NCBI GenBank assembly: GCA_965199495.1 | Contig: CBDASK010000003.1 | Location: forward strand, 3,104,001-3,168,000 | Origin: Abditibacterium sp. | Lineage (GTDB): Bacteria > Armatimonadota > Abditibacteriia > Abditibacteriales > Abditibacteriaceae | Length of the DNA: 64,000 nt | Reading direction: 5' to 3' | Part shown: in pieces, positions 1-62,828 of the stretch | Layout: each line of letters opens with the position of its first letter | Position numbering within the stretch: position 1 is the first letter of the stretch | The notes under the pieces: model-generated | The model's database searches: none | Seen by the model: the letters and a program-made list of their open reading frames with translations, nothing else | Told to the model about the DNA's origin: nothing | Made by a program: the position numbers and the translations under genes

Positions 1-1436
1 AATAAGCGCAGCGCTTCTTCGGGCAAAATCTCCGAGTAAGTCAGCGTATCGAACGCCTTTTCCTGTGTCTCGTCCTTAATGCGTTTCAAATTCAAACGCG
101 ATTGCACGATTTCTCCGGCGAACTCGCGAAACAGTCCCGTCATATCAAATTCGGGATCTAAACTGCGCCCCATCGCTTCGGTTGTGTAAAGCGCCTTTCC
201 CAAAAGCGCCAGACTCGCCGGAAAGTAAACGCCGTTGCGGCGCCCGCTCTCCAACACTTTGCCAAACGCCTCGCCCAGCCGCATCTGGCGCAATGTGCCG
301 CCCATCCACAAATACAAAATATCATCCACATCGTGCTCGAATGAAGGCAAATTAACGTTGCGGCCCGTCTTGGCCAGCCTCATCAGATGACGCAATGCGC
401 TTTCGCTATCGTGATGGAGCAAACCCATGAAAAACGCCGACAATTCCCAGCGTTCGCGCTCATTCAAACGCCCGACCATGCCGTAGTCAATGAACGCGAA
501 GACGTTGTTTTTCATCGCGAAATAGTTGCCGGGATGCGGGTCGGCGTGAAAAAATCCGTCAATGAATATCTGCCGCAAAATCGCGTGCGCTCCGTTGCGC
601 GCGAAGATTTTCGGGTTGATGCCGACGTCAATTAAATGCGCGCGACTGCCGACTGGTTCGCCCTCGATTAAGTCCATCGTCAAAACGCGCGAAGTCGAAT
701 ACCCGTCGAAGATGCGCGCGATTTTTACCGTCTTGCTCCCGGCAAACATCGCCTCGAAGCGCTTGGCGTGGCTGGCTTCGCGCGTGAAGTCCAATTCGCG
801 CTCCAAGGCGTCGGCGAACTGCTCGAACAGAGCCACCGGGCGATAGCCCGCCAGTTCGGGCGCGTGCCGCTCGATCCAACGCGCCAAGTAGCGCAGCAAA
901 CTAATATCCTGCTGCACAATCGGCTGGATGCCGGGCCGTTGCACTTTGACCGCGACCATTTCGCCGGTAAACAATTTCGCCCGATAAACCTGAGCGAGCG
1001 AGGCCGCGCCAATTGGTTCGGCGTCGAATTCATCGAACAAAACCGCGATCTTTTTGCCCAACTCTGATTCGATAATCTGGCGCGCTTCCTCAAAGGGAAC
1101 CGGCGGCACTTGATCGGTCAATTTGCCCAGTTCTTCCATATATTCGGGCGGCAACAAGTCCGAGCGCACCGACAGCATCTGGCCCAATTTGATATAAGTC
1201 GGCCCCAGCCGAATCAGCAAAACCCGCAAACGTTCGGCGTCGGTCGAGGCGCGCGCCTGTTCGAGTTGCCCTTCGTTGAGCCGCAGAAATCCCAATACGC
1301 GATGATGCCAGTAGATAAATTGCGTCAAGTGCGCCTGCGTCAACGCGTAAGCGAAACCCGCCTCGGAAATCAGCGTGATGACGTTGCGCAGTCGTTTGAT
1401 ATCGGCGACTTTGGCGGGCAGAGCGAGAAGAGACAT
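1..1436 (-). CDS. ABC1/AarF/UbiB-family kinase (3' end runs off window)
   Basis: Manual translation from ATG 1436: ...RLGPTYIKLGQMLSVRSDLLPPEY...PIGAASLAQVYRAKL...VAVKVQRPG, typical ABC1 motifs; not in ORF track because it is open at the edge. Confidence 0.9.
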   Translation of the reverse strand, partial: MSLLALPAKVADIKRLRNVITLISEAGFAYALTQAHLTQFIYWHHRVLGFLRLNEGQLEQARASTDAERLRVLLIRLGPTYIKLGQMLSVRSDLLPPEYMEELGKLTDQVPPVPFEEARQIIESELGKKIAVLFDEFDAEPIGAASLAQVYRAKLFTGEMVAVKVQRPGIQPIVQQDISLLRYLARWIERHAPELAGYRPVALFEQFADALERELDFTREASHAKRFEAMFAGSKTVKIARIFDGYSTSRVLTMDLIEGEPVGSRAHLIDVGINPKIFARNGAHAILRQIFIDGFFHADPHPGNYFAMKNNVFAFIDYGMVGRLNERERWELSAFFMGLLHHDSESALRHLMRLAKTGRNVNLPSFEHDVDDILYLWMGGTLRQMRLGEAFGKVLESGRRNGVYFPASLALLGKALYTTEAMGRSLDPEFDMTGLFREFAGEIVQSRLNLKRIKDETQEKAFDTLTYSEILPEEALRL

Positions 1437-1489
1437 GAGCCATTAAAGGCTACACCAATCGCGCGCCCGCGAACGCTGCGCGAATCATC

Positions 1490-1828
1490 TCAACTGACGA
1501 AAGTATCGAGTTTGGAAAGCACAACCGGCAGACGCCGCGAACGCTTGGCGCGTAGCGCCGCGATGTTTTCCAGTTCGATGCCCAGAAACTCTCGGCAAAG
1601 AAAAAGTAGCGCGCAAAACGCCAAATTCTGCGTCGCCGCCACGACGTGCTGGCGCGCCGCCATGTGCGTGAGATAACTCTCGATTTCCGGCACTCCCATC
1701 TCTAAAGGTCGCTTCCTATGAAAGCGCAGGAAACGCTCGATGGTAAGCAGATAAGATTCTTCGGTGCGCCCACTCATGCGCCGCACCCGCATAAACTCGC
1801 TGATTTGCCGCAAAAGTTCGCTTAACAT
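1490..1828 (-). pseudogene. intI: Integron integrase N-terminal (SAM-like) fragment; catalytic domain missing
   Basis: MRVRRMSGRTEESY...EIESYLTHMAARQHVVAATQNLAFCALLFL...RAKRSRRLPVVLS matches the IntI N-terminus; stops just after LPVVLS. Confidence 0.88.
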
Positions 1829-1964
1829 GTGCCGTCGCCACGTTGTGGGCGATTGGATGAATTAGGATACATAGCGGTATTTTACTCAATTTAGGTGTGT
1901 TATGCCGACGTGAAAAACTTTGTTGTAAATCGCGGTTTTATGTGCTATGCTAAACGCAGAATTC

Positions 1965-2007
1965 GTTATTAAACCGCTTCAGCGTCGGCTTAATAACAGT
2001 GTTCTGT
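1965..2007 (+). mobile_element. Candidate attI site (crossover G|TT at 2001)
   Basis: TAATAACAGT-GTTCTGT upstream of and divergent from intI; resembles attI1 TAAAACAAAGTT spacing; homologous motif at 47477-47493. Confidence 0.6.
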
Positions 2008-2176
2008 CGTCGCGTCAGCTTTTGGGGCGCGGCAAAAAAGTAAAGCGAAAAAGGAATACAAATAGCTCAACTTTCCCACACTCATTAGAGAGACTGTACC
2101 TGATGATTCAACTCCTTTATGGCATAATTTCAAATAGGCCATTTAACTCTGCGCTGTGTCGGTCGGAGTAAAACTC

Positions 2177-2401
2177 ATGTTTTGGATAATTGTAGCGATA
2201 CCCATTGTTCTTTTAATTCTGGCACTTCTGCTGGAGCCACTGGCGCAAAGCAGGCGCGAACGCGCGATATTTGAGCAGATGAAGAATGCGCGTGATGCGA
2301 ATGAAGCAAAAGCCGTAATGAATTCTGCAATAGACGCGAATAAGGACAAAACAAAGTTGCCTGAAGATTGGAACGATTCATATCGCCACTGGCAAAAATA
2401 A
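2177..2401 (+). CDS. Small membrane-anchored hypothetical protein (integron cassette 1)
   Basis: Hydrophobic N-terminal helix, AT-rich, between attI-like site and half attC. Confidence 0.65.
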   Translation: MFWIIVAIPIVLLILALLLEPLAQSRRERAIFEQMKNARDANEAKAVMNSAIDANKDKTKLPEDWNDSYRHWQK

Positions 2402-2425
2402 TGTCCGCACTAATCCCCAACAACA

Positions 2426-2468
2426 GCCGAACAAGAGATTATGTTGGCAAGAGGCCATATCCCACTTT
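2426..2468 (+). mobile_element. Left half of an attC-like site
   Basis: GCCGAAC-AAGAGATT...GCCATATCCCACTTT after the stop codon; homologous to 44398-44439. Confidence 0.5.
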
Positions 2469-2495
2469 TTCAGCAACTATTTCGCTTTTCACCAA

Positions 2496-2800
2496 TTAAG
2501 AGTGGTTATGGAGCGACTGTGACTGCCAGCTCGCATCAAACGGCTTCTGATGCTTCAACACGCCGTAAACGATCATCAACATCTTCCTCATGCACGCCGC
2601 CAGCGCTACCCTGCGCGGTTTGCCCGCCGCAATCAATCGCTGATAATGCGCTTTGATCAGAGGATTCCACGTTAGACCCGTTACGGCGGGAAAAACCATC
2701 GCTTTTCGTAATCGCGTGTTGACCTACTTGCTTAATCGTGTGTAGGGCGAACGCTTGCGCCGCTGCGATATTCACGCGGAGCCAATTAGGCGGCGCACGG
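2496..2800 (-). pseudogene. IS110-family transposase C-terminal remnant
   Basis: AA*LAPREYRSGASVR / frameshift / TRLSK*VNTRLRKAMVFPAV...NPLIKAHYQRLIAAGKPRRVALAACMRKML; internal stops and frameshift. Confidence 0.85.
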
Positions 2801-2860
2801 CTTGACAGGAAATGAAAGAGTCTATCCTACTATTTGTAGGAGAAAATCCAAAAGGAAGAT

Positions 2861-3142
2861 ATGCAATACGTTCTTATTATTCACGAAGTCGAAGATTATG
2901 CCGCATGGAAAGCGATTTTTGATGACGCAGCACAACTCCGCAAGGAAGCCGGAGAAATCAGTTATCAGTTGCTCAAGTTTGAAAATGACGCTACCAACCT
3001 CGTGCATTTCTCACGATGGAGTTCATTGCAAAACGCCAAGAACTTCTTCGAGTCGGAACGGTTAGTTGAAATTCGTAAACAAGCGGGTGTCAAAGCGCCC
3101 CAATTCGTCTATTTAGATGAAATTGAAAGTGGCATTTTATAG
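2861..3142 (+). CDS. Dimeric alpha/beta-barrel (ABM/cyclase-like) protein, probable cassette gene
   Basis: HEVEDYAAWKAIFD...RKQAGV pattern; followed by degenerate attC. Confidence 0.75.
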   Translation: MQYVLIIHEVEDYAAWKAIFDDAAQLRKEAGEISYQLLKFENDATNLVHFSRWSSLQNAKNFFESERLVEIRKQAGVKAPQFVYLDEIESGIL

Positions 3143-3231
3143 TGAAGAACACGATTTGGGCACCGGGCGTTGCTGTTAGCTCCATTGGAATCACGCTCCC
3201 AACGCACACATTCCGTGTAATACCAACCGCA

Positions 3232-3290
3232 ACACAACGAGGCGCTAATCTCGACCGCTTCCAGTTTCGCGCTTGTCGCGTAAGTTACAG
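3232..3290 (+). mobile_element. Degenerate attC site
   Basis: ACACAACGAGGCGCTAATCTCGACCGCTTCCAGTTTCGC closely matches the left half of the attC at 46911-46979; right arm incomplete. Confidence 0.55.
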
Positions 3291-3325
3291 GAATTTAAAG
3301 CGAGAAGACTGAAACTTTCGGTTTT

Positions 3326-4237
3326 TCAGCGCACCTCTGCGCCCTTCGCCGCGTGTTGAAACTCTTGCAAAATGGCGCGCACTGGCAAACGCTCGTCGTC
3401 ACGGGCAATGGCCGCGCTGAAATCAATGTGGCCCTGCGGCGCGCGCAAGGGTTTAAAAGTGACGTTGGAAGAAGGCATTTGTTGCACATCGTCCGGCACG
3501 ATTCCCACGCCGGAACCGCTGCCGATGAGCGCCAATAAGCTCGAAAGTCCGTCGGCCTGGTGCGCGATGCGCGGCGTGAAGCCGGCCTGGCGACAAACGG
3601 CGTGCACCAGTTCATTGCGACCGGGAAAAGTCGTCTCGTCCAGTCCGATGAACTCTTCGTTTTGTAGTTCGCCAACTTTGAGAAGGGCGCGCCCCGCCAA
3701 CCGGTGCGCCGAATTGAGCGCGGCCATCAAAGCGATGCGGCAAATCGTCGTTAATTGAAATTCGCGGCCCACTTCGGGCGCGGCGTGGCCGATGAGCGCG
3801 ATGTCGAGCCGTCCCGCGCGCAACGCTTCGATCTGGCGGCCCGGCGAGAGTTCAAATAATTTGATTTCGACTTGCGCGTGCTTTTGATGAAAGATTTGCA
3901 ACGCGGCGCCCAAAAAACTGCCCAGCGCGGGCGCGATGTAGCCGATGGCGATGTTGCTGTTGCGACATTCGATAAAGCGCCGCATCGAAAGCACGGCTTC
4001 GGCGCTCTGCTCGGTAATTTGGCGCGCCTGGGGCAAAAACTCGCGGCCCGCCGGAGTGAGGCTCATGCCCGACGCGGTGCGCGCGAACACAGCCACGCCC
4101 AATAGCTTCTCCAAATCTTTGATCTGGCGACTCAACGCGGGTTGCGTGATGAACAGGCGCGCCGCCGCGCGCGTGATGTTGCCTTCTTCGGCCACCGCCA
4201 CGAAATAACGCAGATGTCGCAATTCCATCTGTGCCAT
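3326..4237 (-). CDS. LysR-family transcriptional regulator
   Basis: MELRHLRYFVAVAEEGNITRAAARLFITQPALSRQIKDLE HTH; divergent from pirin. Confidence 0.95.
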   Translation of the reverse strand: MAQMELRHLRYFVAVAEEGNITRAAARLFITQPALSRQIKDLEKLLGVAVFARTASGMSLTPAGREFLPQARQITEQSAEAVLSMRRFIECRNSNIAIGYIAPALGSFLGAALQIFHQKHAQVEIKLFELSPGRQIEALRAGRLDIALIGHAAPEVGREFQLTTICRIALMAALNSAHRLAGRALLKVGELQNEEFIGLDETTFPGRNELVHAVCRQAGFTPRIAHQADGLSSLLALIGSGSGVGIVPDDVQQMPSSNVTFKPLRAPQGHIDFSAAIARDDERLPVRAILQEFQHAAKGAEVR

Positions 4238-4337: not shown

Positions 4338-5057
4338 ATGAACAACGTTATCACGAAATCTCGCATCACGATTCGCCGCGCCCACGAACGCGGCCATGCT
4401 GCCCGTGGCTGGCTCGATAGCCGCCACACTTTTTCTTTCGCCGAGTATTTCGATGCGGCGCACATGGGCTTTCGCTCGTTGCGCGTCATCAACGAAGATC
4501 GCGTTGCGGCGGGCGGCGGTTTCCCGACGCATCCGCACAAGGACATGGAAATCTTTTCCTACGTCGTGTCGGGCGAACTCGAACACCGCGATAGCATGGG
4601 CAACAGTCGCATTAACCTCGCTGGCGAATTGCAAGGCATGAGCGCAGGCAATGGAATTGCGCACTCGGAAGGCAACGCTTCGCGCGATAAACCCGTGCAT
4701 TTTCTGCAAATCTGGATTTTACCCAACCAGAAAAATCTGACGCCGACTTACTCCGAATGGAAGCCCACCGCTGGCACGCCCAAAAATTTGACGCTGTTGG
4801 CCTCGCCCAATGGAGAAGATAATAGCGTCGTCGTCCATCAGGATGCGCGCATTTATCTGGGGCAACTCGAAGCGGGCGACAGCGTGGAATATTCGACCAC
4901 CGCTTCACGCGGCCTGTGGCTGCAAGTCATCGACGGCGAAATCGAAATCGACGGCGAAACGTTAAGTGCGGGCGACGGCGCGTCGGTCGAAAACATCGAA
5001 CGCCTGACGGTGCGCGCGACTGACGAAAGCCAGTTCTTGCTGTTCGATCTGGCGTAA
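4338..5057 (+). CDS. Pirin-family protein (YhhW-like)
   Basis: GWLDSRHTFSFAEY, GFPTHPHKDMEI, HRDSMGN, HSE, FLQIW motifs. Confidence 0.93.
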   Translation: MNNVITKSRITIRRAHERGHAARGWLDSRHTFSFAEYFDAAHMGFRSLRVINEDRVAAGGGFPTHPHKDMEIFSYVVSGELEHRDSMGNSRINLAGELQGMSAGNGIAHSEGNASRDKPVHFLQIWILPNQKNLTPTYSEWKPTAGTPKNLTLLASPNGEDNSVVVHQDARIYLGQLEAGDSVEYSTTASRGLWLQVIDGEIEIDGETLSAGDGASVENIERLTVRATDESQFLLFDLA

Positions 5058-5133: not shown

Positions 5134-6567
5134 CTAAACTTTTGCGACGGTTGTAAAGCTGGTCTCTTTATGGACAGTGCTGGAAATGTTGCTCATCGTC
5201 TGCAATTCGATGGTAACGGGTTTTGGAGTGCGCTTTTTCGCGCGAATCGTGACTTGCAAAGTGCTGGGATTCTTTTTGGAAATCCGTGCGTCGCCGATAA
5301 AGTTGAAGCCGCCGCCAAAAACCATCGCATCGGTGACGTTTTTGCCGCGTAATTTAAAATGAATATCCCAATCTTCGCCGTTGCGGAGGATGGCCCGCAT
5401 CACCGGAGAAATGGCGATGCCCGGAGCGAACCCGTTCGAGATGACAAAAGACATCGTGCATTGCGCGCCCTGCTTTCCTTTACCCAGAAAGACGAGCGCG
5501 TGGCTGCCGTTTTTCTGAATCGCCGGGACACCCGTTTTTGCCGCACCGCTACTCGGCAAAGTCACTTTGGGAAGCGTATTGAAATGCTTGATCAGCCAGT
5601 AAGCCACGCCGGTCTTGGTGTCTGGTGCGATTGTGTCTCCTTCCGCATTCACCACCGATTCGGGGAAAGTGGCCAAGCTCTTCAGCGCGCCGTAGGGATA
5701 AACTCCCCAGATCGCGGGCACGGCACCATGATCCTCAAGGTCAAAAACCATCATTTGGCTGCTCTGCAAAAAACTGGGGCCGCCATAACCGGGCCGATCA
5801 TTAGAGTCGGGAGGAGCCAACATGACAGCCGAGGTTTTATTCAACTGATTGGTAAAAGTCACTGTCGAATACAATCCATCGCGCGCAGAAAGCTCATTGT
5901 TATACCAGAGCCTGAGCGGGCTGTCCGCAGACATTCCATCGGTCGCTCTGATATTCTTTCTCAGTTCAGAGTTTCCGCGCGCGTCTCCTAAAATATTTCC
6001 GCCCAGTGTCCACGGCCCCATCAACGCCAGGCAATCTCGCTTGCCTTGGTAATTTTTCAGCGTTTGAACTCGTTCTGCCGAGATACCGTAGTTCAAACTG
6101 GTCACGGGAACCTTAAATCCGCCGGAAGTTAAACACGCAATGTTTCTTTTATCTTGCGCTTCCGGGTAGTTCATGTCCGTTTCGTAAAAAGCCTCTTTAC
6201 GCGTGAAGCAATTGGCCATGTCAACGGCCATTTGCAGAGGATTTGCGCCGTGAGCAAACACATGATCCATCATGGCAAAGTTGGTATAAAATCCATCGGC
6301 ATGGGTGCGCACGTAACTCCATTTGGCAGAGTTATCGGGATTGGCCAGTTCTTCCCAGGCCGTGGGTAAACCGCCAAAGTCACTCGACCCAACATAAACT
6401 TTCGCCTGCCGTTCGGGTAAAATCCTGATGGTTTTTGTGGCCGCTACGCCTTGACGAATGCGGTTTGGTTTGGATGTGGTTTGTCCGCGTGCCAATGTCG
6501 TGACGCCAAGGGCCAACAGACAGCAGAGCGCGGACGAAACAAGGAATTGTTGGGGAACTATTGTCAT
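5134..6567 (-). CDS. Secreted hypothetical protein
   Basis: Long ORF with signal-peptide-like N-terminus; atypical codon usage; family not recognised. Confidence 0.75.
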   Translation of the reverse strand: MTIVPQQFLVSSALCCLLALGVTTLARGQTTSKPNRIRQGVAATKTIRILPERQAKVYVGSSDFGGLPTAWEELANPDNSAKWSYVRTHADGFYTNFAMMDHVFAHGANPLQMAVDMANCFTRKEAFYETDMNYPEAQDKRNIACLTSGGFKVPVTSLNYGISAERVQTLKNYQGKRDCLALMGPWTLGGNILGDARGNSELRKNIRATDGMSADSPLRLWYNNELSARDGLYSTVTFTNQLNKTSAVMLAPPDSNDRPGYGGPSFLQSSQMMVFDLEDHGAVPAIWGVYPYGALKSLATFPESVVNAEGDTIAPDTKTGVAYWLIKHFNTLPKVTLPSSGAAKTGVPAIQKNGSHALVFLGKGKQGAQCTMSFVISNGFAPGIAISPVMRAILRNGEDWDIHFKLRGKNVTDAMVFGGGFNFIGDARISKKNPSTLQVTIRAKKRTPKPVTIELQTMSNISSTVHKETSFTTVAKV

Positions 6568-7452: not shown

Positions 7453-8727
7453 TCAACCCACGCGCGCCCATTCCGGCTCGTCTTCGAGGCGATACAACAA
7501 TTCGCCCGCACGCTCGACATACAGCACGTCTTCGTCCTCGCGGTTCTGGAAATCTTCGACGTTGATCGTCGCCGGATCGCGGTAACCGAGATTGATTTTT
7601 TCGCATGTTTCGCGTGGGATGCCGGTCGCCAACGTCACGCGGATGCGCGGTTTTTCAACGCCATCCACCATTTTGCCGACGCCGCGAACGTGCGTCGAAT
7701 GGGCCAAAATGCCCCACGGTTCGTCTTTGAACTTGTCCCAATTCGCCAGAAAATAGGGCAACGTGTGATAACCGATTCGCTCGATAATGGCGCCGTGAAC
7801 CGGCGAAACTTCGGTGATGTGCGGCGCGTAAATAATCAGTTCGCCACCATCAGCCACGACGGGTTCCAATTTATACATACATTTGCCGCCGACCCACAAA
7901 TCGTCATACATTTTGGGCGCCTGACTCAGCACAGTTTGGAACGGATGCGGCACGCGCTTGACGTTGACGCCGTTGCTCAAATCTGCTGCGGATTCCCACG
8001 CTTGTTCCGGCGTGCCGACGGTCAGAGCGACCAGCGATTTATCGGGCGCGACGACCATGCAAAACGCGGCTTTGGGAACTGGAACCATCGCGGCGGCGCG
8101 GTCAACGACGGCGCGCACCGCCGTCCATTTGTGGCCGATGACGCGCGCATTTGTCAAAACCGCGCCCAGCCAGTGAAAGAAATTTAGCACTTCTGGCCCG
8201 CCGATGCCGGGAAACAGATATTTGTTGCCGCCCGAAAACCCAACGACTTCGTGCGGAAACACCGGCCCGACGATGAGGATTTGATCGTAACTCAACGCGG
8301 TTTTGTTGAACGTCACTTCGACATCCATCGCGAATAAACCGCCCGAAAGTTCGTCAATTTCGCTGGAGGGAATCGTGCCCAGCGTTTGTAGCGCGTCGGG
8401 ATTGTCCCATTTGTGATTGAGATAGGCGACGTGGCTGTATGTCGCGGCGCGCTCGTCGGCGCTGATTTCGAGGCGCGCGTTGATTTGGTCGTCGCTCATC
8501 GGCGGATGTGTGCCGAGGGCAATCATCACGTCGAGATTTTTGGTTTTGGCGCCGATACAGTCGAAAATCGTTTTGAACAACAAGCCGACGGGCGCGCTCC
8601 GCGTGGCATCGGGCACGACGAGCAAAACGCGTTTGCCATCGAGTTGCAGACTATCGAGGAACGGCGCGGCGATGGCGCGAACTTGATTTGAAGAAATCAT
8701 AACTTTTGGTTTCGACGAATCTGTCAT
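7453..8727 (-). CDS. LarA-superfamily (lactate racemase domain) 2-hydroxyacid racemase/epimerase
   Basis: PDATRS, ALGTHPPM, PHEVVGFSGGNKYLFPG motifs. Confidence 0.88.
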   Translation of the reverse strand: MTDSSKPKVMISSNQVRAIAAPFLDSLQLDGKRVLLVVPDATRSAPVGLLFKTIFDCIGAKTKNLDVMIALGTHPPMSDDQINARLEISADERAATYSHVAYLNHKWDNPDALQTLGTIPSSEIDELSGGLFAMDVEVTFNKTALSYDQILIVGPVFPHEVVGFSGGNKYLFPGIGGPEVLNFFHWLGAVLTNARVIGHKWTAVRAVVDRAAAMVPVPKAAFCMVVAPDKSLVALTVGTPEQAWESAADLSNGVNVKRVPHPFQTVLSQAPKMYDDLWVGGKCMYKLEPVVADGGELIIYAPHITEVSPVHGAIIERIGYHTLPYFLANWDKFKDEPWGILAHSTHVRGVGKMVDGVEKPRIRVTLATGIPRETCEKINLGYRDPATINVEDFQNREDEDVLYVERAGELLYRLEDEPEWARVG

Positions 8728-8851: not shown

Positions 8852-9658
8852 TCAAATCGTCATCGAACTAAACCCGCCATCAACCACCAAATTTTGGCCC
8901 GTTACGAAGCCCGACGCTTTACCCGAAGCCAGAAATACGACCGCGCCCGCCAACTCTTCGGCAGAGCCAAAACGCGCCATCGGCGTGTGACCGATGATTT
9001 GGCTGCCGCGCTCGGAATAGCTGCCATCGTCGTTGAACAAAAGTTTTTTGTTCTGTTCCGCCGGGAAAAATCCGGGCGAAAGTGCGTTGACGCGCACGCC
9101 TTTCTCGGCCCATTCGCGCGCTAAAAATTGCGTCAGATTGATCACGGCGGCTTTGGCCGCGCCGTAGGCCACGACGCGCGAAAGAGGAATCATGCCCGCC
9201 ATCGAAGCGACGTTGATAATTGAACCGTTGCCCGCTTCGACCATTGTTTCGCCCCAAACCTGACATGGCAGCAAAGCGCCGCCAACCAAATTTAAATCGA
9301 AAACATCGTTCCATGCGTCTTGGGGTAGCGCGCAAAAATCGGCACCGGGCGGCAGGGTCGCTTCGGGCCGGTTGCCGCCCGCCGCGTTGACCAAAATCGT
9401 CGTCGCGCCCAGTTCGTTTTCGATGGCATTGCGCGCGCGCGTCAAATCGTTTTTATCGAGCGCATCGGCGGTGAAAAAAGCGGCGCGGCCACCGGCGTCT
9501 TCGATTTCCTGCACGCGCGCCTCGCCGTTACGGGCGTTACGCCCGATGATAGCCACGGCGGCGCCGTGCTGCGCCAATGCCAGCGCCATCGCGCCGCCAA
9601 GAGCGCCCGTGCCGCCAATGACGGCGGCGGTTTGGTCGGTCAAGTCGAAAAGATTCAT
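8852..9658 (-). CDS. SDR oxidoreductase, D-mannonate oxidoreductase-like
   Basis: GGTGALG, NAAGGN, YGAAK, RVNALSPGFFPAEQN, HTPMARFG. Confidence 0.88.
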   Translation of the reverse strand: MNLFDLTDQTAAVIGGTGALGGAMALALAQHGAAVAIIGRNARNGEARVQEIEDAGGRAAFFTADALDKNDLTRARNAIENELGATTILVNAAGGNRPEATLPPGADFCALPQDAWNDVFDLNLVGGALLPCQVWGETMVEAGNGSIINVASMAGMIPLSRVVAYGAAKAAVINLTQFLAREWAEKGVRVNALSPGFFPAEQNKKLLFNDDGSYSERGSQIIGHTPMARFGSAEELAGAVVFLASGKASGFVTGQNLVVDGGFSSMTI

Positions 9659-39519: not shown

Positions 39520-39522
39520 TTT

Positions 39523-47610: not shown

Positions 47611-47625
47611 CTCCAAACCGCGCAA

Positions 47626-53521: not shown

Positions 53522-53938
53522 TTAGCCGCCGGGCAGGGGAAACGCGCCCGCCAACCGCGCGACCCAAAACGTGAAAAGCAAAGTTGACATTCCGATGAGA
53601 AATACGCGTTGCGCGCGCACGGGTTGGGGAAACGGCGGTTTTGTCAGTGACAGCCACGCCGACCACATTGTGTAGATTAAGGCGCTCACAAACAGAAATG
53701 GCCCCAACGGATGCCACACCAACGCTTCGCGGAAGTATCCGTGTGCCATCGAAACCCACGCGCGCGTCAGGCCGCAACCGGGACATGGATAGCCCGTGAG
53801 ATTGTGAAACGCACAAATCGAAGGCATGCCCGCGATGGCGTTATCGTGGGGCAAGGGCAAAATCGCCGAGGCCATAAGCAGCGCCGCCAGAAAATAAGTC
53901 GAGGGCCACAAACGAAATTGGCGAATTGATTTTTCCAT
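53522..53938 (-). CDS. DUF2752 membrane protein
   Basis: CAFHNLTGYPCPGCGLTRA, HPLG. Confidence 0.9.
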   Translation of the reverse strand: MEKSIRQFRLWPSTYFLAALLMASAILPLPHDNAIAGMPSICAFHNLTGYPCPGCGLTRAWVSMAHGYFREALVWHPLGPFLFVSALIYTMWSAWLSLTKPPFPQPVRAQRVFLIGMSTLLFTFWVARLAGAFPLPGG

Positions 53939-54040: not shown

Positions 54041-54799
54041 ATGAAATCGCTTTTTAAACAAATGATCGCGCGCGCCATGCCCGGTTCTTATTCGCACCGC
54101 GTGCCGGGACGGCCCAATCCCATCGCCATTGCCATCGCCGAAAAATACGGCTATCGCGTTCTGAACGGCCCGTTCGCCGGATTGAATTACACGCGCAAAG
54201 CGGCGGGTTCGGCGCTCGCTCCGAAATTAATCGGTTCTTACGAGCGCGAATTGCATCCGGTGTGGGAACAAATTCTGCGCAAAAATTACGATTTAGTTGT
54301 GGACATCGGTTGCGCCGAGGGTTATTATGCGGTCGGTCTGGCGAAACATCTGCCGGGCACGCCGCGCGTTGTGGCTTTCGATATAGATTATGAAGCGCGT
54401 CTGTTATGCCGCGAATTGTCTATCAAAAATGGCGTTTCCAATCGCGTCGAAGTTTTGGGCGAATGCGACGTGGCTGCACTTGGGCGCGTCTTGAAACCGC
54501 GTTCATTAGTGGTCTGCGATTGCGAGGGCGCCGAAGTGGATTTGCTGCAACCCGACCAAGTCGAGGCGCTACGCCACTCCGATATTTTGGTCGAATTGCA
54601 CGATTTTCTGCGCACGGGCGTCACGCCGACTTTAACGGAGCGTTTCGCGAAAACGCACGATATTCAACTGATTGACAGCGCGCAACCCGATGCGTCGCTC
54701 TATAAAGAACTCGAAATTCTGACGCCGCAACAACGTGAAATCGCGTTGGACGAACGCGCCAAGCCGATGCAATGGGCGTGGATGACGGCGAAAGTTTGA
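54041..54799 (+). CDS. SAM-dependent methyltransferase (FkbM-like)
   Basis: GSYERELH, VDIGCAEGYY, DCEGAE, VELH. Confidence 0.8.
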   Translation: MKSLFKQMIARAMPGSYSHRVPGRPNPIAIAIAEKYGYRVLNGPFAGLNYTRKAAGSALAPKLIGSYERELHPVWEQILRKNYDLVVDIGCAEGYYAVGLAKHLPGTPRVVAFDIDYEARLLCRELSIKNGVSNRVEVLGECDVAALGRVLKPRSLVVCDCEGAEVDLLQPDQVEALRHSDILVELHDFLRTGVTPTLTERFAKTHDIQLIDSAQPDASLYKELEILTPQQREIALDERAKPMQWAWMTAKV

Positions 54800-55744: not shown

Positions 55745-56293
55745 ATGATTAAACCCACGCCCGAACAATTGCGCGCCGCCGTTGGCGATTTTACGCCCGA
55801 TATACTCGCGCCGAATTTGAACGTTCTCTTTTGCGGCATTAATCCGAGCGTTTATTCGGCGGTCGTCGGCCACCATTTCGCGCGGCCCGGTAATCGGTTT
55901 TGGCGCGCGTTGCATCGCGGCGGCTTCACGCCGCACCAAATCGCGCCCGAAAATGACGCGCAATTGCTCGATTATGGTTTGGGCGTAACCAACGTGGTTG
56001 CGCGCGCCACGGTCGCCGCCGCCGATTTGACCAACGCCGAATTACGCGCTGGAGCGCCCTTACTCATCGAGAAAATCGAGACGTTCCAGCCGACGTGGCT
56101 GGCAATTGTGGGCATCGGCGCCTATCGCGTGGCGTTCGATGAACCTAAAGCGACAATCGGCCCGCAAACGCGCACAATTGGCGCGACCAAAGTTTGGGTT
56201 TTGCCCAATCCCAGCGGCTTAAACGCGCATTATCCGCCCGACGCGTTGGCCGAGAAATTCGGCGAATTGTGGGCGGTGGTTTGTTCCAGTTGA
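55745..56293 (+). CDS. mug: G/U mismatch-specific DNA glycosylase
   Basis: FCGINP, HHFARPGNRFW, LPNPSGLNAH. Confidence 0.93.
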   Translation: MIKPTPEQLRAAVGDFTPDILAPNLNVLFCGINPSVYSAVVGHHFARPGNRFWRALHRGGFTPHQIAPENDAQLLDYGLGVTNVVARATVAAADLTNAELRAGAPLLIEKIETFQPTWLAIVGIGAYRVAFDEPKATIGPQTRTIGATKVWVLPNPSGLNAHYPPDALAEKFGELWAVVCSS

Positions 56294-57756: not shown

Positions 57757-59685
57757 TTAAAACGCCTCGTGGCTCTTGTCTTCGCGCGGGCCGTCGAACA
57801 GCCACGTCTTGAGCGCGACCAACATAAAGCGCGGCACATAACCCATCTTTTTCCAGCGCGCTGGCTCGACCCACACGCGATAAAGCCACTCTAATCCGAT
57901 GCGCTGGATGGCGACGGGCGCGCGCGTAAATTTGCCCGAATAAACGTCGAACGAGCCGCCGACGCCAATCGAAACCGGCACGTTCATGCGCTGCATATGT
58001 GCGGCGATGAACTTCTCCTGCATCGGAATTCCCATCGCCACGAACAAAACGTCGGGCGCGGCCTGCGCGATGACATCGGCCATGATTTCGTCGCTTTCGT
58101 CCCTGGAAAACCCGTTTTCTTCGCCCTCTTTGCGCCAAAAACCGTGATGCGTGCCCACGACCGTCAAGCCGGGATATTTCTGTTCCAGATTGCGCGCGGC
58201 AACGGATGAAATACTCTCGCCGCCCGGCGTAAATCCCGAACCCAAAATATAAATTTTGTAACCTTTTTCTGCCGCTCGCTCGCAGATGCCAGTCACCATA
58301 TCAACGCCGGTCACGCGCTCGTAAATCGGCAAATTGAGCAGACGCGCGCCCCAAATAACGCCGAATCCATCGGGCGTCGTCAGCGAGGCGTTGCGCATAA
58401 TTTTAAGGTATTCGGGATCATTGCGTGAAGTCAAAATCGCGTTGGCATCGGTGGTTAAAACCTGATGCGGCTGGCCCGACTGGATGAAACCCTCGACGCG
58501 GTCGAGCGCTTCGCTCATGCTGACTGGCGAGATTTTGACGCCAAACGCGTCAATGCTTTCGGGCAACTCTTCGTCGGTTTTACGGCGCATCTGCAAGCGC
58601 GCCAGCGAAAAGAAAACGATGGCGCCCGCGCCCGCCAAAAACAGCAAAATCAAGCCGTAAAAAATCGCCATCAAAGTTGACGGCGGCGAGCCAAAAAACC
58701 AGTGCGTCGCCAGAAACGCCAGTCCGCACAGCCACGCGCCGACGCAAAAATAATAAAGCGCGATTTTGGCGCGCGGCACACCGCGCTCTTCCAAGGCCTG
58801 ATCAAGGCGCATCTGGCGGTTGCTCCAATTGACGTTATAACCGCGCAAGCGCGCGCGCACCTTGACAATCGAGACGTTGAGTAAGGGCAATCCCAGCGAC
58901 AAAAGCCCCAGCGCCAAGAGGGCTGGCAACGTGTTTTTGAGTAGGCCCATCGCCGTGGCTGTTCCGACCAGAAAGCCCAGCGCCAGCACCGACGACCAGC
59001 CCAAATTAATGTTGGGCCTTTTGAGCGCCACGGCAAACGCGGCCAAACCCGCGCCCGCCACAGCCCAGGTTGCGGTCGGCGCGAACAGGTTTTCGGTGCG
59101 CCCGTTGGTGCTCCACAACAGCGCGACGGTAAGCGCGAACAATCCCAGATAACCACCAGCCACGGCGGGCACGCGGTTGAGCGAGGCGCACAATCGCGCA
59201 ACTAACCAAATCCACGCGACAGTGATAAGGGTATCAATCGGCCCCAATTCAACCAACCCCGAATCGGCGGAAGTCGAGCGGGCGACCTGAATTATGACAT
59301 CGCTCGAAATGCGCGTGGCGAGAAACGCCGCTCCGACCACCACGATGTCGGCGACCCACGCGGGCAAACGGCCCAATCCGCGTAGCGCCGCCAAAACGTA
59401 AACCGCCAGCGCCAAAATCCCCAGTTGGATGCCCGCCAAAAGTTCGGGCGAATATCTGACCTGCGAAAGTGCCGTAATCTGATCGGGCGTCATGTTCGCG
59501 TAAATCGTTGGCGAGGTGCTGCGCGCCATCTCATAAAACCAGAACGAAAGGGCGCCCACCAACAAAGTCGCGCCGACCAAAACGATGCCTTCGGGGCGCG
59601 GATTGAAACGACCGTAAGTGTGCTGCGAGAGCAAAAGCCCCCCATAAGTTAAAATTATCGCTGCCAGAAAAGTCCAGATAAACAT
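57757..59685 (-). CDS. WecB/TagA/CpsF glycosyltransferase fused to an MraY/WecA-like membrane domain
   Basis: C-terminal PDGFGV, ERVTGVD, VAMGIPMQE, GVGGSFD, GLEWLYR; multi-TM N-terminus. Confidence 0.88.
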   Translation of the reverse strand: MFIWTFLAAIILTYGGLLLSQHTYGRFNPRPEGIVLVGATLLVGALSFWFYEMARSTSPTIYANMTPDQITALSQVRYSPELLAGIQLGILALAVYVLAALRGLGRLPAWVADIVVVGAAFLATRISSDVIIQVARSTSADSGLVELGPIDTLITVAWIWLVARLCASLNRVPAVAGGYLGLFALTVALLWSTNGRTENLFAPTATWAVAGAGLAAFAVALKRPNINLGWSSVLALGFLVGTATAMGLLKNTLPALLALGLLSLGLPLLNVSIVKVRARLRGYNVNWSNRQMRLDQALEERGVPRAKIALYYFCVGAWLCGLAFLATHWFFGSPPSTLMAIFYGLILLFLAGAGAIVFFSLARLQMRRKTDEELPESIDAFGVKISPVSMSEALDRVEGFIQSGQPHQVLTTDANAILTSRNDPEYLKIMRNASLTTPDGFGVIWGARLLNLPIYERVTGVDMVTGICERAAEKGYKIYILGSGFTPGGESISSVAARNLEQKYPGLTVVGTHHGFWRKEGEENGFSRDESDEIMADVIAQAAPDVLFVAMGIPMQEKFIAAHMQRMNVPVSIGVGGSFDVYSGKFTRAPVAIQRIGLEWLYRVWVEPARWKKMGYVPRFMLVALKTWLFDGPREDKSHEAF

Positions 59686-60054: not shown

Positions 60055-61830
60055 TTATTCATCAAGCCAAGACTCATCATAGTCTTTGAGTTCATGGTCA
60101 ACCGAGCCTTTCTTTGTAGGTTCCACGCTTAGTTCTGGAATTCCCAATAAAGCTTTTACCTTCGCCACAACTTCGCCCGATGCGACAGCCACGGCGTCTT
60201 TGCTTTGGCGCGTGCGCACTTCCAAGTCGCCGCTTTCTTTGGTCGTGCGCCCGGCCATAACGCGCGTCGGAATGCCGAACAGGTCGGCGTCGGCGAACTT
60301 GCTGCCGGGGCGTTCGGTGCGGTCGTCATAAAGCACGTCCAAACCCGCCGCGCGCAGTTCGTCGTAGAGTTTGTCGGCGATTTGAACAACCGCTTCGTCG
60401 CGTTCGAGCAACAATAAATGCACGTCGAACGGCGCCAGTTCACGCGGCCAAATCGGGCCGCGATCATCGTGGTGCGCTTCGACGACTGCGGCCATAATGC
60501 GCGACACGCCGATGCCGTAACAGCCCATTTCGGGGATGCGTTTTTTCTGGTCTTTGTCCAAAAACGTCGCGCCCATCGCGCGGCTATATTTGTTGCCCAA
60601 TTTGAAAATGTGGCCCATCTCGATACATTTCGCGCTTTCGAGCGGCCCGCCGCCATTGGGCGACAACTCGCCCGCATTCGCCTCGCGCACATCAGCCCAC
60701 TTTTCAACTTGAATATCGCGTTCGACATTGACGCCGCGCAAATGAAAACCGTCTTCGTTGGCACCCGTCGTCATGTGCGCGCGTCCGCGCAAGGCTTCGT
60801 CGGCTGTGATCGGCACGTTTTCGACGCCGACCGCGCCCAGACTGCCGGGATGCGCGCCCAGTAAATCAACGATTTCGTCCGCCGTGGCTGCTCGCAACTC
60901 GCTCGCGCCCAGAGCGCTACCCAACTTCGATTGGTTGAGTTGATGATCGCCGCGCAGCAAAACCAATTGCGGTTTGCCATCGGCCCTCATCACTAATGTT
61001 TTAATTTGATGAACGGCTGCCGCGCCGCCCTCGAAATTCGCCAGTTCGTCAATGGTAGCCACGCCGGGCGTGGCGAATTTTTCCAATTCGTCCGCGATGT
61101 CGTCGCGATTTTCGACTGGCTCCAAAATTGAAGTCGCCAATTCCAAATTGCTGGCGTAGCCGTCGCTTTTGTTAAAGAGCATCAAATCTTCGCCCGACGG
61201 GCTGACGACCATGAACTCTTTGGTGTCGAAACCGCCGATGCCGCCGCCCGCCGCGTCCACGATTTGCGCGTCCAATCCGCAACGCGCGAAAATGCGCTGA
61301 TACGCGCCGACCATTTTATCGAACGATTTGTCCAACCCGGCGATGTCCACATCGAACGAGTAGGCGTCCTTCATGATGAACTCGCGCCCGCGCAAAAGTC
61401 CAGCGCGAGGACGCGGTTCGTCGCGAAATTTGGTCTGAATTTGATAAAGCGTGAGCGGTAGCTGCTTATAACTTTCGATGGAAGCGCGCACGATGTCGGT
61501 TACGACCTCTTCATGCGTCGGGCCGAGCGTGTAGTCGGAGCCTTTGCCGTCTTGCAATCGAAATAAAATGTCGAGGCCAGCGCGCCCACTTTCCTGCCAA
61601 ATTTCGATGGGTTGGAGGGCGGGCATCAAGAGTTCGACGGCGCCCGCCTCGTCCATTTCTTGGCGCACGATGCTCTCGATTTTGTGCAAAACGCGCAGGC
61701 CGAGCGGCAGATAAGAGTAGATGCCCGCGCCCAATTGGCGAATATAAGCGCCGCGCAAAAGTAAGGCGTGGCCTTCGTTGTCGGCTTTGACGTTGCGCAA
61801 TGTGGGCGCGAAAAATTGACTTTGTCTCAT
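60055..61830 (-). CDS. proS: Proline--tRNA ligase (with editing insertion)
   Basis: LGPTHEE, KFRDEPRPR, REFIMKDAYSF, GHIFKLG, MGCYGIGVSR. Confidence 0.97.
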   Translation of the reverse strand: MRQSQFFAPTLRNVKADNEGHALLLRGAYIRQLGAGIYSYLPLGLRVLHKIESIVRQEMDEAGAVELLMPALQPIEIWQESGRAGLDILFRLQDGKGSDYTLGPTHEEVVTDIVRASIESYKQLPLTLYQIQTKFRDEPRPRAGLLRGREFIMKDAYSFDVDIAGLDKSFDKMVGAYQRIFARCGLDAQIVDAAGGGIGGFDTKEFMVVSPSGEDLMLFNKSDGYASNLELATSILEPVENRDDIADELEKFATPGVATIDELANFEGGAAAVHQIKTLVMRADGKPQLVLLRGDHQLNQSKLGSALGASELRAATADEIVDLLGAHPGSLGAVGVENVPITADEALRGRAHMTTGANEDGFHLRGVNVERDIQVEKWADVREANAGELSPNGGGPLESAKCIEMGHIFKLGNKYSRAMGATFLDKDQKKRIPEMGCYGIGVSRIMAAVVEAHHDDRGPIWPRELAPFDVHLLLLERDEAVVQIADKLYDELRAAGLDVLYDDRTERPGSKFADADLFGIPTRVMAGRTTKESGDLEVRTRQSKDAVAVASGEVVAKVKALLGIPELSVEPTKKGSVDHELKDYDESWLDE

Positions 61831-61865
61831 TGTTGAACTTGGCAGTTTAGTGCGAACGGTTCTTT

Positions 61866-62063
61866 CGGATGTCGGATGACGCGACCTATTTGCGAGCGCT
61901 TGTCATTTCGAGCGTAGCCGAGAAATCTTGCGCCCGCGCGGCAGCGCAGGTTAAAACCGCTTCAACGCCAAAGATAAAGCATGACTTCCGCTGGCGCGGG
62001 GCCAAAAGATTTCTCGGCTTCGCTCGAAATGACAGGCGAATGTGTTTCGTAATCAGACATCCG
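61866..62063. repeat. TGTCATT-family palindromic element, copy 3
   Basis: Same core (61901-62034); imperfect outer arms. Confidence 0.85.
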
Positions 62064-62828
62064 CTAATCCCCCAACAATCGCAACCCATTGAGCGTCAAA
62101 TGTGGCTCGACGCGTTCGATCATCGGCACGAGCGGCGCGATGAGTTCGGCCAAACCGCCGGTCGCGAAAATCGTCGGCTCGGTCGGCCAATCGGCGACGA
62201 AATCGGCGCGCGCGCGTTCGAGCAGTTCGCGCGTGAGTCCGGCGTAACCGAAAACCAGACCGGCTTGAATGGATTCGGTCGTGTTGTGCGCCAAGGTGCG
62301 CGAAGGCGCGCGCAGTTCGACGCGCGGCAAGCGGGCGGCGGCGCGAAACAGAGCGTCGCTCGAAATGCCGATGCCGGGCGCAATCGCGCCGCCCAGATAA
62401 GTGCCGTCGGGCGAAACCGCGTCAATGGTGGTCGCCGTGCCAAAATCGGCGATAATCGCGCCGCCCGGCGCCATTTTGTGCGCGCTCAACGCGTTAATCA
62501 AACGGTCGGCGCCCACGGCAGTGGGCGGCTGATACAGATTCTTGAGGCCAGTAGTAGAAGCATCAGCCACGGCGGGTTCGCAATTCAGATAATCGCGGCA
62601 TAACTGAATCGCTTGCGGCGTTAGAGACGGCACCACGCTACACAAAGCCGCGCTTTCGACTTGATCGAACGCAAAACCGCGCGCGTTCAAAGCGAATTGA
62701 AGAAACGCCGCCAATTCGTCGGAAGTCGCATCGCGCCGCGTGGCCATGCGCCAATGTCCGACGAGATTTTCGCCATCGAACAGGCCGATGGCCAAGTTGG
62801 TATTGCCAAAATCGAGCGCCAAAAACAT
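62064..62828 (-). CDS. coaX: Type III pantothenate kinase
   Basis: DFGNTN, SVVP, GADR, DFGTATT, GGAIAPG, ATGG. Confidence 0.96.
   Translation of the reverse strand: MFLALDFGNTNLAIGLFDGENLVGHWRMATRRDATSDELAAFLQFALNARGFAFDQVESAALCSVVPSLTPQAIQLCRDYLNCEPAVADASTTGLKNLYQPPTAVGADRLINALSAHKMAPGGAIIADFGTATTIDAVSPDGTYLGGAIAPGIGISSDALFRAAARLPRVELRAPSRTLAHNTTESIQAGLVFGYAGLTRELLERARADFVADWPTEPTIFATGGLAELIAPLVPMIERVEPHLTLNGLRLLGD

Follow-up and report, generated by a model that had tools for sequence, protein, structure and literature searches.

The 64,000-nucleotide stretch of Abditibacterium sp. DNA analysed here (the window; positions 3,104,001 to 3,168,000 of contig CBDASK010000003.1, GenBank assembly GCA_965199495.1, or C3:3104001-3168000 of the source genome, G000) contains 60 exact copies of the heptamer CGTGGCT, 30 on each strand. 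This heptamer, which recurs about once per kilobase throughout the chromosome, is the invariant core of an asymmetric 12-base word, CGVCGTGGCTGC. Judging from its sequence properties, the best reading of the word is that of a DNA-uptake-type self-recognition tag, similar in kind to the DNA uptake sequence (DUS) of the Neisseriaceae; we put the probability of this reading at roughly 0.42. The sites of this word were born by point substitution inside one small clade and were later conserved.

Identity and specificity of the word

The G000 genome (95% complete) consists of 3 contigs, a 4.72-Mb chromosome (55.7% GC) and small contigs of 24.7 and 64.6 kb. In 100 dinucleotide-preserving shuffles of the window, CGTGGCT was found 8.27 times on average (standard deviation 2.94, maximum 16) and the observed 60 copies were reached in none. 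The original prediction, made from the letters of the window, had counted about 60 copies, 30 per strand, and proposed a DNA-uptake-like sequence, with a methylation or nucleoid-protein site as alternatives; the count proved exact, each position named for a copy carries the heptamer, and the enrichment, judged at that time against a rough expectation of about 11, stands, although the shuffle mean is lower than this figure. The chromosome has 2277 copies on the forward and 2256 on the reverse strand (4533 altogether, 0.96/kb), and the 24.7- and 64.6-kb contigs have 8 and 12. The heptamer is over-represented genome-wide, with 4553 copies observed and 811 expected under a third-order Markov model.

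Alignment of all copies yields the consensus CGVCGTGGCTGC, in which the variable third position (V) is C more often than G and G more often than A. The extended form suggested earlier, GCCGTGGCTGC, is close to this genome-wide consensus, but differs from it. The 12-mer occurs ~175-fold above expectation and its specificity is sharp: the forms with C, G and A at position 3 are present in 690, 357 and 276 copies (~2-4 expected each), the T form in 27, and single-letter variants at positions 1, 2 and 4-10 in 0-26 copies each, i.e., near background. No 10-, 11- or 12-mer is more frequent in the genome than CGCCGTGGCT (1374 copies), CGCCGTGGCTG (1051) and GCAGCCACGGCG (690), respectively. Among the 60 copies of the window, 14 have the full 12-mer and 38 the 10-mer CGVCGTGGCT. 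The literature matches listed for the word sequences themselves were, as far as these partly available sources go, only primers or unrelated papers.

Two other features of word usage in G000 may be mentioned separately. The heptamer CCTGGCT is strongly depleted genome-wide (99 copies, 313 expected), possibly because CCWGG is avoided. Among hexamers to octamers, GCGCGC-type words are the most frequent, and TTCGAT and GTCGAA are also over-represented.

Scarcity in recently acquired DNA

When 5-kb windows of the chromosome were divided into tenths by the atypicality of their tetranucleotide use, the most atypical tenth was found to carry 0.60 copies/kb, compared with 0.94-1.08 across the other nine tenths, and the largest gaps between copies mostly lie at odd GC content. 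The extended word CGVCGTGGCT, which has a density of 0.593/kb on the chromosome, is absent from the 24.7-kb contig and present in only 2 copies in the 64.6-kb contig. Equal density in foreign DNA, which had been put forward as a result that would speak against a self tag, is thus not what is found.

In the window itself, two regions described earlier as word-free cassettes indeed lack the heptamer (no copy in 774-4090 or 43964-48348; GC content 0.49-0.51). Within the second region, a 3.3-kb segment (44324-47598, GC 0.49) with zero copies is replaced by ~1 kb in the close relative G011 and is therefore regarded as lineage-specific DNA, an insert of G000. The open reading frames (ORFs) of this segment have weak TPR and SUKH-1 (SMI1/KNR4) matches only, and it may be an immunity-protein-type cassette.

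Reading frames, codons and non-coding DNA

For this part of the analysis, genes were represented by our own crude ORF calls (3456 ORFs, 82.5% coding, with a codon-usage filter). Copies inside these ORFs account for 4062 of the 4533 chromosomal copies (90%), compared with 730 (standard deviation 20) in synonymous shuffles within genes and 647 in codon shuffles. All six reading frames are enriched (161/109, 397/140, 1753/158, 400/142, 137/20 and 1214/161, copies found/expected), the dominant ones being xxC GTG GCT (1753) and xxA GCC ACG (1214), which encode AVAA-like and AATA-like peptides. The enrichment, which would have been expected to vanish under a dicodon-preserving null if it were a by-product of codon order, does not do so: relative to a first-order codon expectation, which by construction absorbs most of the signal of any heptamer, the core is still 1.5-4.1-fold over-represented in every frame and the 11/12-mer 15-115-fold. 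Non-coding DNA contains 457 copies where 104 are expected (4.4-fold) and coding DNA 4062 where 692 are expected (5.9-fold). A gradient in the position of the copies within genes was looked for and none was found.

The earlier remark that the word often employs codons that are uncommon elsewhere was correct, in that GCT and GCA account for 10% and 6% of the alanine codons of G000, respectively; of the GCT codons genome-wide, 12% fall within CGTGGCT.

Strand symmetry, spacing and inverted pairs

Chi sites and the polar sequences that orient FtsK (KOPS) are strongly co-oriented with replication. The GC skew and the gene-strand bias of the G000 chromosome are nearly flat; a scan of all heptamers on the chromosome led to a polar word, GGGCAGGG, with 101 forward and 10 reverse copies within 2.01-4.335 Mb and 10 and 104 elsewhere (91% skewed), which fits the KOPS consensus of Escherichia coli, GGGNAGGG. 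Because the skew of GGGCAGGG flips at ~2.01 and 4.335 Mb, the chromosome is divided into two balanced replichores with switch points at these positions. On these replichores, CGTGGCT is distributed 1155/1109 and 1122/1147 between the strands (51:49 and 49:51), and its skew statistic of 0.97 ranks 4026th among 4632 heptamers, so that the strong replichore skew that would have pointed to a Chi- or KOPS-like signal is missing. The window lies in the middle of a replichore, and its 30/30 strand split is therefore meaningful.

The copies are spaced more evenly than expected by chance, with a mean distance of 1041 nt on the chromosome, a coefficient of variation of 0.89 and too few distances below 500 nt; neighbouring copies are never more than 10 kb apart. 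Inverted pairs depart from this pattern, with a peak at a distance of 8-16 nt: among word pairs at most 60 nt apart, 168 are inverted and 30 direct, and up to a distance of 40 nt there are 136 inverted pairs, 114 of them inside genes and 19 wholly intergenic. Some of the intergenic inverted pairs resemble terminators, possibly bidirectional ones. The copy at 34341, which had been placed in a terminator loop, does lie in the loop and the 3' arm of a terminator-like structure (A-run, hairpin and T-run, 34326-34358) that a simple hairpin scan missed because its loop exceeds 8 nt, and our ORF calls place the copies at 18814 and 23428 between genes, as had been stated.

Origin and conservation of the sites

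The comparison with relatives involved a family set of 27 genomes in 6 genera, including a genus set of 13; relatives were sampled at 47-260 kb each for alignments. G011 is syntenic with G000, with ~84-87% identical DNA and the same word, and G004 is ~78% identical to G000. In the sampled alignments, G000 sites are intact in G011 in 66 of 98 cases and in G004 in 15 of 87. When all heptamers were compared in the same manner, the word turned out to be kept far better than others between G000 and G011 (68 of 97, 0.70, compared with 0.41 for all heptamers; rank 7 of 843) and worse than most between G000 and G004 (15 of 85, 0.18, compared with 0.29; rank 601 of 660). Therefore, most sites were made after the split from G004 and were then held.

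Relative to G004, G006 and G003, the G000 sites differ at all seven core positions, by transitions as well as transversions; in the window, for example, CGTGGCG, CGTGGCC or CGTCGCC in one or another of these three genomes aligns to the word in G000 and G011. Given that the G000 sites align base-for-base with word-free orthologous sequences, they represent substitutions rather than insertions. The gains are not mostly synonymous, a possibility that was considered and ruled out: the encoded peptide is altered at 37 of the 66 sites that differ from G004 and unchanged at 29, and it is unchanged at 13 of the 25 sites that differ from G011, the same as in random windows (0.45 for G004 and 0.59 for G011). 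Import of new sites together with diverged DNA was rejected as well, since the identity of the flanks is 0.848 at G000-only sites and 0.847 at random positions (0.857 at shared sites and 0.842 at G011-only sites; none of the differences is significant).

Carriers of the word and a second dialect

Only three of the 27 family genomes, G000, G011 and G004, carry the word. The octamer CGTGGCTG is present in 3091, 2676 and 3503 copies in these genomes, respectively, and in 131-529 copies, i.e., at the control level (118-458 for a control word), in the other 24. The 11-mer CGSCGTGGCTG occurs 1692 times in G000, 1392 times in G011 and 413 times in G004, and is at control level in the other 28 genomes searched.

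In G004, the core is kept whereas the flanks differ, giving GGACGTGGCTGGTGTC, the 13-mer of which has 740 + 703 = 1443 copies (0-16 in the other 12 genus genomes) and no local strand skew (4/5, 2/2, 6/3 and similar per 20 kb). Within a 140-kb sample of G004, 32 of the 44 copies of the 13-mer belong to intergenic inverted pairs ~34 nt apart that form long hairpins, in which the arms are common but the loops and outer stems are unalike; the remaining 12 are single copies in long ORFs, which, wherever an alignment to G000 exists, are separated from the G000 sequence by several substitutions. By analogy with the dialects of Neisseriaceae, this variant in a sister species, which the earlier prediction had not anticipated, would fit a DUS-like tag.

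An ~80-kb metabolic island of G004 (G004:C3, ~580-658 kb; loci L101 and L173-L175), which encodes xanthine-dehydrogenase-family enzymes, AraC regulators and short-chain dehydrogenases/reductases, has nearly no copies of the dialect of its own genome and carries the G000-type flanks at ~0.7/kb. Two segments of the island are 92-94% identical to C3:895-898 kb of G000, compared with ~78% genome-wide, which points to transfer between the dialect lineages.

No other hyper-abundant word was detected in samples of 47-160 kb from G002, G003, G005-G010 and G012; the scan for other words was confined to the genus, the five other genera of the family having been counted for this word only. Two candidates for further dialects were dismissed, one in G006, which is a repeat of the clustered regularly interspaced short palindromic repeats (CRISPR) type with 28+ conserved bases, and one in G012, which is a single CAG/CAT tandem array.

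Competence machinery and the search for a reader

G000 has ComEC (862 aa), ComEA with SLBB and HHH_3 domains, DprA, eight secretin-family matches, and an operon consisting of PilB, PilT-like, PilC and PilD genes followed by four pilin-like ORFs. The competence genes that one would look for with an uptake tag are thus present, but they are generic and also found in non-carriers. One of the pilin-like proteins of the type IV pilus operon (618 aa; G000 C3:868592-870445, L169:10592-12448) has 57% identity between G000 and G011 and 47% between G000 and G004, whereas the respective values are 78% and 63% for the neighbouring pilin-like protein and 89% and 72% for ComEA; to judge by these values, the 618-aa protein is a fast-evolving surface protein. 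Pilin-like paralogues of the DUF1559 type are numerous in G000; together with the relatives of its ProRS among the genome contigs compared, which are at most 51% identical and headed by Verrucomicrobiota metagenome-assembled genomes, they might suggest an affinity to the PVC group.

Genes bearing on the alternative explanations were also searched for. No match to Vsr above the cut-off was found in G000 or G011, the best being one sub-threshold match of 24.5 bits in G000; the single clear vsr gene in the genus sample is in G004 (C5), on a separate 4.7-kb contig. No RecC match (PF04257) and no AddAB-like nuclease were detected in G000, where two PDDEXK_1 matches exist, neither of them AddAB-like. 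Separately, G000 encodes a 1421-aa protein (C3:4111365-4117038; L171) that combines an N-terminal PD-(D/E)XK nuclease with an SF1 (AAA_11/AAA_12) helicase and adjoins the gene for a bacterial topoisomerase IB. Transposase genes of the Y1_Tnp family are present in 12 of the 13 genus genomes, independent of the word, and no clear arrangement in which such a gene is flanked by repetitive extragenic palindromic (REP) sequences was seen at six G000 and six G004 loci, one G004 locus (L168) being ambiguous.

Comparison with known systems

Among known systems, DUS are the closest: there, too, an asymmetric word of 10-12 bases occurs in thousands of copies at ~1/kb (in Neisseria ~1,150 nt apart; PMC2397512), equally on both strands, is highly conserved once present, is enriched in core DNA and poor in recently acquired DNA, forms inverted pairs that make hairpins behind genes (for DUS, reported as terminators; PMC2397512), and varies between related species around a common core (here CGTGGCTG), the dialects of Neisseriaceae being read by the minor pilin ComP (PMC3630211). 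Thus, as far as can be told from sequence, the anatomy of the word matches that of DUS point for point, in copy number, spacing, symmetry, conservation, core bias, hairpins and dialects, and the parts of the DUS system, namely type IV pilus, secretin, ComEA, ComEC and DprA, are present as well, albeit also in non-carriers. As a member of the DUS family proper, the word fails. It is different from the DUS 10-mer GCCGTCTGAA, with which the earlier form GCCGTGGCTGC shares only GCCGT and CTG in the same order, an overlap taken as chance; the lineage is non-proteobacterial; no ComP homologue was found, in a search without a positive control; and instead of being family-wide, it is limited to three of 27 family genomes.

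The uptake signal sequence (USS) of Pasteurellaceae is likewise a hyper-abundant asymmetric word that resides in coding regions in the least-cost frames, affects the encoded peptides (here at the 37 of 66 changed sites) and has a sharp core with weaker flanks (PMC2817400, PMC3458573); the word in G000 differs in sequence and lineage. The cyanobacterial palindrome HIP1 (GCGATCGC) is also hyper-abundant (15- to 300-fold), conserved, present in both genes and spacers, and of unsettled function (PMC5861425, PMC4390886, PMC13756078), but it is a palindromic octamer that is linked to orphan methyltransferases and is phylum-wide, whereas the present word has 12 bases, lacks palindromic symmetry and is limited to three species. 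A link to methyltransferases did not emerge here, the only genes located being of the C5-methyltransferase type. Chi and KOPS are similarly short, over-represented and thinner in foreign DNA, but the word is not co-oriented and GGGCAGGG of the same genome is. REPs are intergenic insertions with conserved spacers. The intergenic hairpin pairs of G004 are reminiscent of REP doublets, but unlike these and the related REPIN, most copies of the word are intragenic substitutions, and the hairpins are alike in the arms only. A bias of the Vsr/Dcm type differs from what is observed in that neither G000 nor G011 has a Vsr above the cut-off and the differences affect all 7 positions, transversions included, whereas such a bias would confine gains to T-to-C at a single position.

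Proposed role of the word

A sequence-specific factor would read the word on DNA whatever the strand, gene or frame. We infer that this factor is part of the uptake machinery and that biased uptake is what drives the word: a surface or periplasmic DNA receptor, acting together with the type IV pilus, ComEA, ComEC and DprA, would prefer fragments that bear the word, and both uptake and recombination would then favour word-bearing alleles. By this molecular drive, possibly aided by selection for exchange within the species, the word would spread and be held against mutation, and recently arrived DNA would lack it. Tentatively, this would represent uptake-type self-recognition outside the Proteobacteria that was born recently within one genus and already has two dialects.

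Several observations weigh against this interpretation. The competence genes do not separate carriers from non-carriers, because 18 of 19 relatives have ComEC and all 13 genus genomes have ComEA, non-carriers included. ComP_DUS (PF16732) has no match at E<=0.01 in any of the 13 genus genomes, in a search without a positive control given that 14 control genomes gave no match either, and the hunt for a receptor, in which two of the four pilin-like proteins and ComEA were followed and found to be present across the genus, yielded no candidate; the 618-aa protein is just 57% identical between two genomes that share the word. There is no trace of import from diverged donors, because the flanks of new sites are as diverged as random positions, whereas such import has been reported for DUS (PMC2397512). 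DUS are mostly intergenic (PMC2397512), whereas 90% of the present copies are intragenic, albeit with similar enrichment factors in coding and non-coding DNA. The most atypical tenth of the chromosome still has 284 copies where 71 are expected. Finally, the available parts of the literature on natural transformation in Planctomycetes and Verrucomicrobia contain no report among the matches listed; nor does that on uptake sequences and over-represented words contain anything on this lineage among the matches listed.

Sequence-specific DNA uptake is, in the excerpts available, established in two proteobacterial families only (bioRxiv 10.1101/2025.10.24.684340; PMC1939737). The signature described here resembles that of an uptake tag and stems from a distant lineage, with three carrier species, word-free close relatives and two dialects. 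If the uptake reading is true, the birth and divergence of uptake specificity, as well as the reader gene, could be traced by comparing the three carriers with their word-free sisters, which bears on whether such specificity is commoner than thought and on how it arises. The speed at which a genome can be rewritten also becomes addressable, with ~4,500 sites made against codon preference and half of them changing the protein. Should the reader lie outside the uptake machinery, it would be a new kind of protein that reads DNA throughout the genome. As a practical matter, the two dialects can already be used to tell where DNA came from, as in the case of the 80-kb island of G004 that carries the other dialect.

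Alternative explanations

The sharp 12-base specificity, strand symmetry and even spacing, together with the conservation between G000 and G011, the scarcity in foreign DNA and the changed flanks of G004, would fit equally well if the word were the genome-wide site of a clade-specific intracellular DNA-binding protein, for instance one that organises the nucleoid or one that marks self DNA and so keeps a nuclease or defence system in check, with selection at each site; the ordinary divergence around new sites fits origin in place as well. We nevertheless consider this explanation rather unlikely: ~4,500 separate acts of selection would have to override codon preference (GCT being 10% of the alanine codons) and also the peptide at 37 of the 66 sites that changed, the analysis yielded no candidate protein, and no bacterial nucleoid protein is known to have a sharp 12-base site about every kilobase. 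Alternatively, near-matches may be turned into the word in place by biased repair or by conversion coupled to modification, as has been proposed for HIP1, or by repair of the very-short-patch (VSP) type. Such a process would account for the one-letter variants of the 12-mer being near or below expectation (e.g., T6>C, 0 copies compared with 9.3 expected; T10>G, 11 compared with 13.9) and for the absence of excess divergence beside new sites, and has a precedent in HIP1, a hyper-abundant word linked to methyltransferases according to the excerpts of PMC4390886 and PMC13756078. Nevertheless, it appears improbable, given that neither G000 nor G011 has a Vsr above threshold, that both C5-methyltransferase genes of G000 sit in word-poor islands, that an asymmetric 12-base word is unlike known VSP or HIP targets, and that all seven core positions differ, transversions included (e.g., G/C at position 4, and T replacing G or C at position 7); because a drive based on deamination repair is expected to produce one transition type and many kinds of change are seen, such a drive is counted against.

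The remaining possibilities carry little weight. Spread as a mobile REP/REPIN-type element by an IS200-like Y1 transposase (REP-associated tyrosine transposase, RAYT) is suggested above all by the hairpin pairs of G004, which comprise about two thirds of the sampled 13-mers (32 of 44), and by the Y1_Tnp genes of G000 and G004, but it is very doubtful overall and refuted for G000: 90% of the copies there are single, intragenic and aligned base-for-base with word-free orthologous sequence, the G004 hairpins have only their arms in common, and the transposase genes are found regardless of the word, with no clear REP-gene-REP arrangement among the 12 loci. A polar signal for recombination or segregation of the Chi or KOPS type would explain over-representation and the thinner distribution in foreign DNA, and the G004 form contains GCTGGTG, which we take to recall the E. 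coli Chi sequence; this explanation is scarcely credible and is refuted with regard to orientation, considering the 51:49 and 49:51 distribution next to a 91% skewed octamer in the same genome, the lack of RecC and AddAB-like PD-(D/E)XK matches in G000, and a length of 12-17 bases, which exceeds that of any Chi known to us. Next to no credence can be given to the idea that the word results from the usage of codons, dicodons or peptides (alanine- and valine-rich peptides such as AVAA and AATA): two frames do dominate, with 1753 and 1214 copies, but all six frames and non-coding DNA are enriched, the signal survives the synonymous, codon and dicodon nulls, rare codons are used, and 24 of the 27 family genomes, with similar composition, have no more copies than expected from the control word, so that the artefact is refuted by the frame, non-coding, relative and dicodon tests.

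Sites in the window and additional observations

Table 1. Copies of CGTGGCT and word-free stretches in the window. Strand is that of CGTGGCT; core only, CGTGGCT; 10-mer, CGVCGTGGCT; 12-mer, CGVCGTGGCTGC; sense and antisense are relative to the ORF.
Form	Position	Strand	Context	State in relatives and remarks
core only	767..773	+	antisense in ABC1-kinase ORF	
core only	4091..4097	-	sense in LysR ORF 3326-4282	
core only	4404..4410	+	sense in pirin ORF 4275-5057	
core only	5499..5505	+	antisense in ORF 5134-6594	
10-mer	5602..5608	-	sense in ORF 5134-6594	
core only	7852..7858	-	sense in ORF 7453-8739	
10-mer	8430..8436	+	antisense in ORF 7453-8739	
10-mer	9551..9557	-	sense in ORF 8852-9658	
12-mer	10469..10475	-	sense in ORF 9689-11125	
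12-mer	11278..11284	+	sense in ORF 11165-11851	
core only	13819..13825	+	antisense in ORF 13372-14196	
10-mer	14502..14508	-	antisense in ORF 14185-14847	
10-mer	15253..15259	-	sense in ORF 15190-17481	
core only	15349..15355	-	sense in ORF 15190-17481	
10-mer	16045..16051	+	antisense in ORF 15190-17481	G004 CGTGGCC
10-mer	16588..16594	-	sense in ORF 15190-17481	kept in G004
10-mer	17961..17967	+	sense in ORF 17827-18465	kept in G004
10-mer	18814..18820	-	intergenic	
12-mer	20220..20226	+	sense in ORF 20110-20952	absent in G011, G004 (G000-only gain)
12-mer	21712..21718	-	sense in ORF 21628-22776	kept in G011, not G004
12-mer	22624..22630	+	antisense in ORF 21628-22776	core kept in G011, not G004
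core only	23080..23086	-	sense in ORF 22816-23403	G011, G004 CGTGGCG
core only	23428..23434	+	intergenic	
core only	23751..23757	+	sense in ORF 23533-24234	
10-mer	24945..24951	+	sense, end of ORF 24330-24953	kept in G011
12-mer	27621..27627	+	sense in HEAT-repeat ORF 26335-28014	kept in G011, not G004, G006, G003
core only	28518..28524	-	antisense in ORF 28098-28586	kept in G011 only
core only	28816..28822	-	antisense in ORF 28631-29743	G000-only
core only	29101..29107	+	sense in ORF 28631-29743	G000-only
10-mer	29211..29217	+	sense in ORF 28631-29743	core kept in G011, G004
core only	30996..31002	-	antisense in ORF 30010-31455	kept in G011
core only	34245..34251	+	antisense in ORF 33950-34327	G011, G004 CGCGGCT
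core only	34341..34347	+	intergenic	terminator-like hairpin 34326-34358
12-mer	35390..35396	+	antisense in HisRS ORF 35033-36292	kept in G011; G004 CGTGGCG
10-mer	35770..35776	-	sense in HisRS ORF 35033-36292	kept in G011, G004, not G006/G003
10-mer	37689..37695	-	sense in ORF 36864-38108	kept in G011; G004/G006 CGTGGCG, G003 CGTGGCA
core only	38665..38671	-	sense in ORF 38242-39363	kept in G011
12-mer	39079..39085	+	antisense in ORF 38242-39363	kept in G011
10-mer	40036..40042	-	sense in E1 dehydrogenase ORF 39523-41478	kept in G011; G004 CGTGGCC
12-mer	40528..40534	+	antisense in ORF 39523-41478	kept in G011
10-mer	41686..41692	+	antisense in ORF 41608-42837	G011 CGTGACT
10-mer	43537..43543	+	sense in ORF 43148-44320	kept in G011; G004 CGTGGCC
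10-mer	43957..43963	-	antisense in ORF 43148-44320	kept in G011; G004 CGTGGCG
core only	48349..48355	-	sense in ORF 47626-48528	kept in G011
12-mer	49392..49398	+	antisense in ORF 48573-49667	
core only	50113..50119	-	sense in ORF 49893-51845	
12-mer	51498..51504	+	antisense in ORF 49893-51845	
12-mer	52532..52538	-	sense in ORF 52052-52942	
10-mer	53652..53658	-	sense in ORF 53522-53938	
12-mer	54469..54475	+	sense in ORF 54017-54799	
10-mer	56094..56100	+	sense in ORF 55745-56293	
core only	57768..57774	+	antisense in ORF 57757-59763	inverted pair with 57800
core only	57800..57806	-	sense in ORF 57757-59763	inverted pair with 57768
core only	58730..58736	-	sense in ORF 57757-59763	
10-mer	58954..58960	+	antisense in ORF 57757-59763	
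10-mer	59158..59164	-	sense in ORF 57757-59763	
10-mer	60187..60193	-	sense in ProRS ORF 60055-61830	
12-mer	60883..60889	+	antisense in ProRS ORF 60055-61830	
10-mer	61057..61063	-	sense in ProRS ORF 60055-61830	
10-mer	62565..62571	-	sense in ORF 62064-62828	
word-free stretch	774..4090		3.3 kb; GC 0.51 in 2001-4000	few ORFs pass the codon-usage filter
word-free stretch	43964..48348		4.4 kb	includes lineage-specific 44324-47598

Several other repeats were encountered in the relatives. A sample of G006 (C24) contains a CRISPR array with 42 copies of a 28-nt repeat ending in GGGGATGAACCG, which we take to be type I-E-like, and the small contigs C1, C2, C4 and C5 of G004 contain 107 copies of a CRISPR repeat. 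In G001 (L123, L129, L189-L192), an unrelated AT-rich word, CCACAAAAAATG, is found together with its flanks in 50 copies in ~54 kb, on both strands, often arranged in inverted pairs at a distance of 25-45 nt and for the most part in the gaps between ORFs; 190 other loci lack it, and it is probably a REP-like or regulatory repeat.

In the window, intergenic stretches of ~150 bases (~28594-28774, 29791-29935, 38150-38308 and 39375-39520) have many matches, on both strands, in G011, G004 and G006, and look like a family of palindromic dispersed repeats that does not contain the word.

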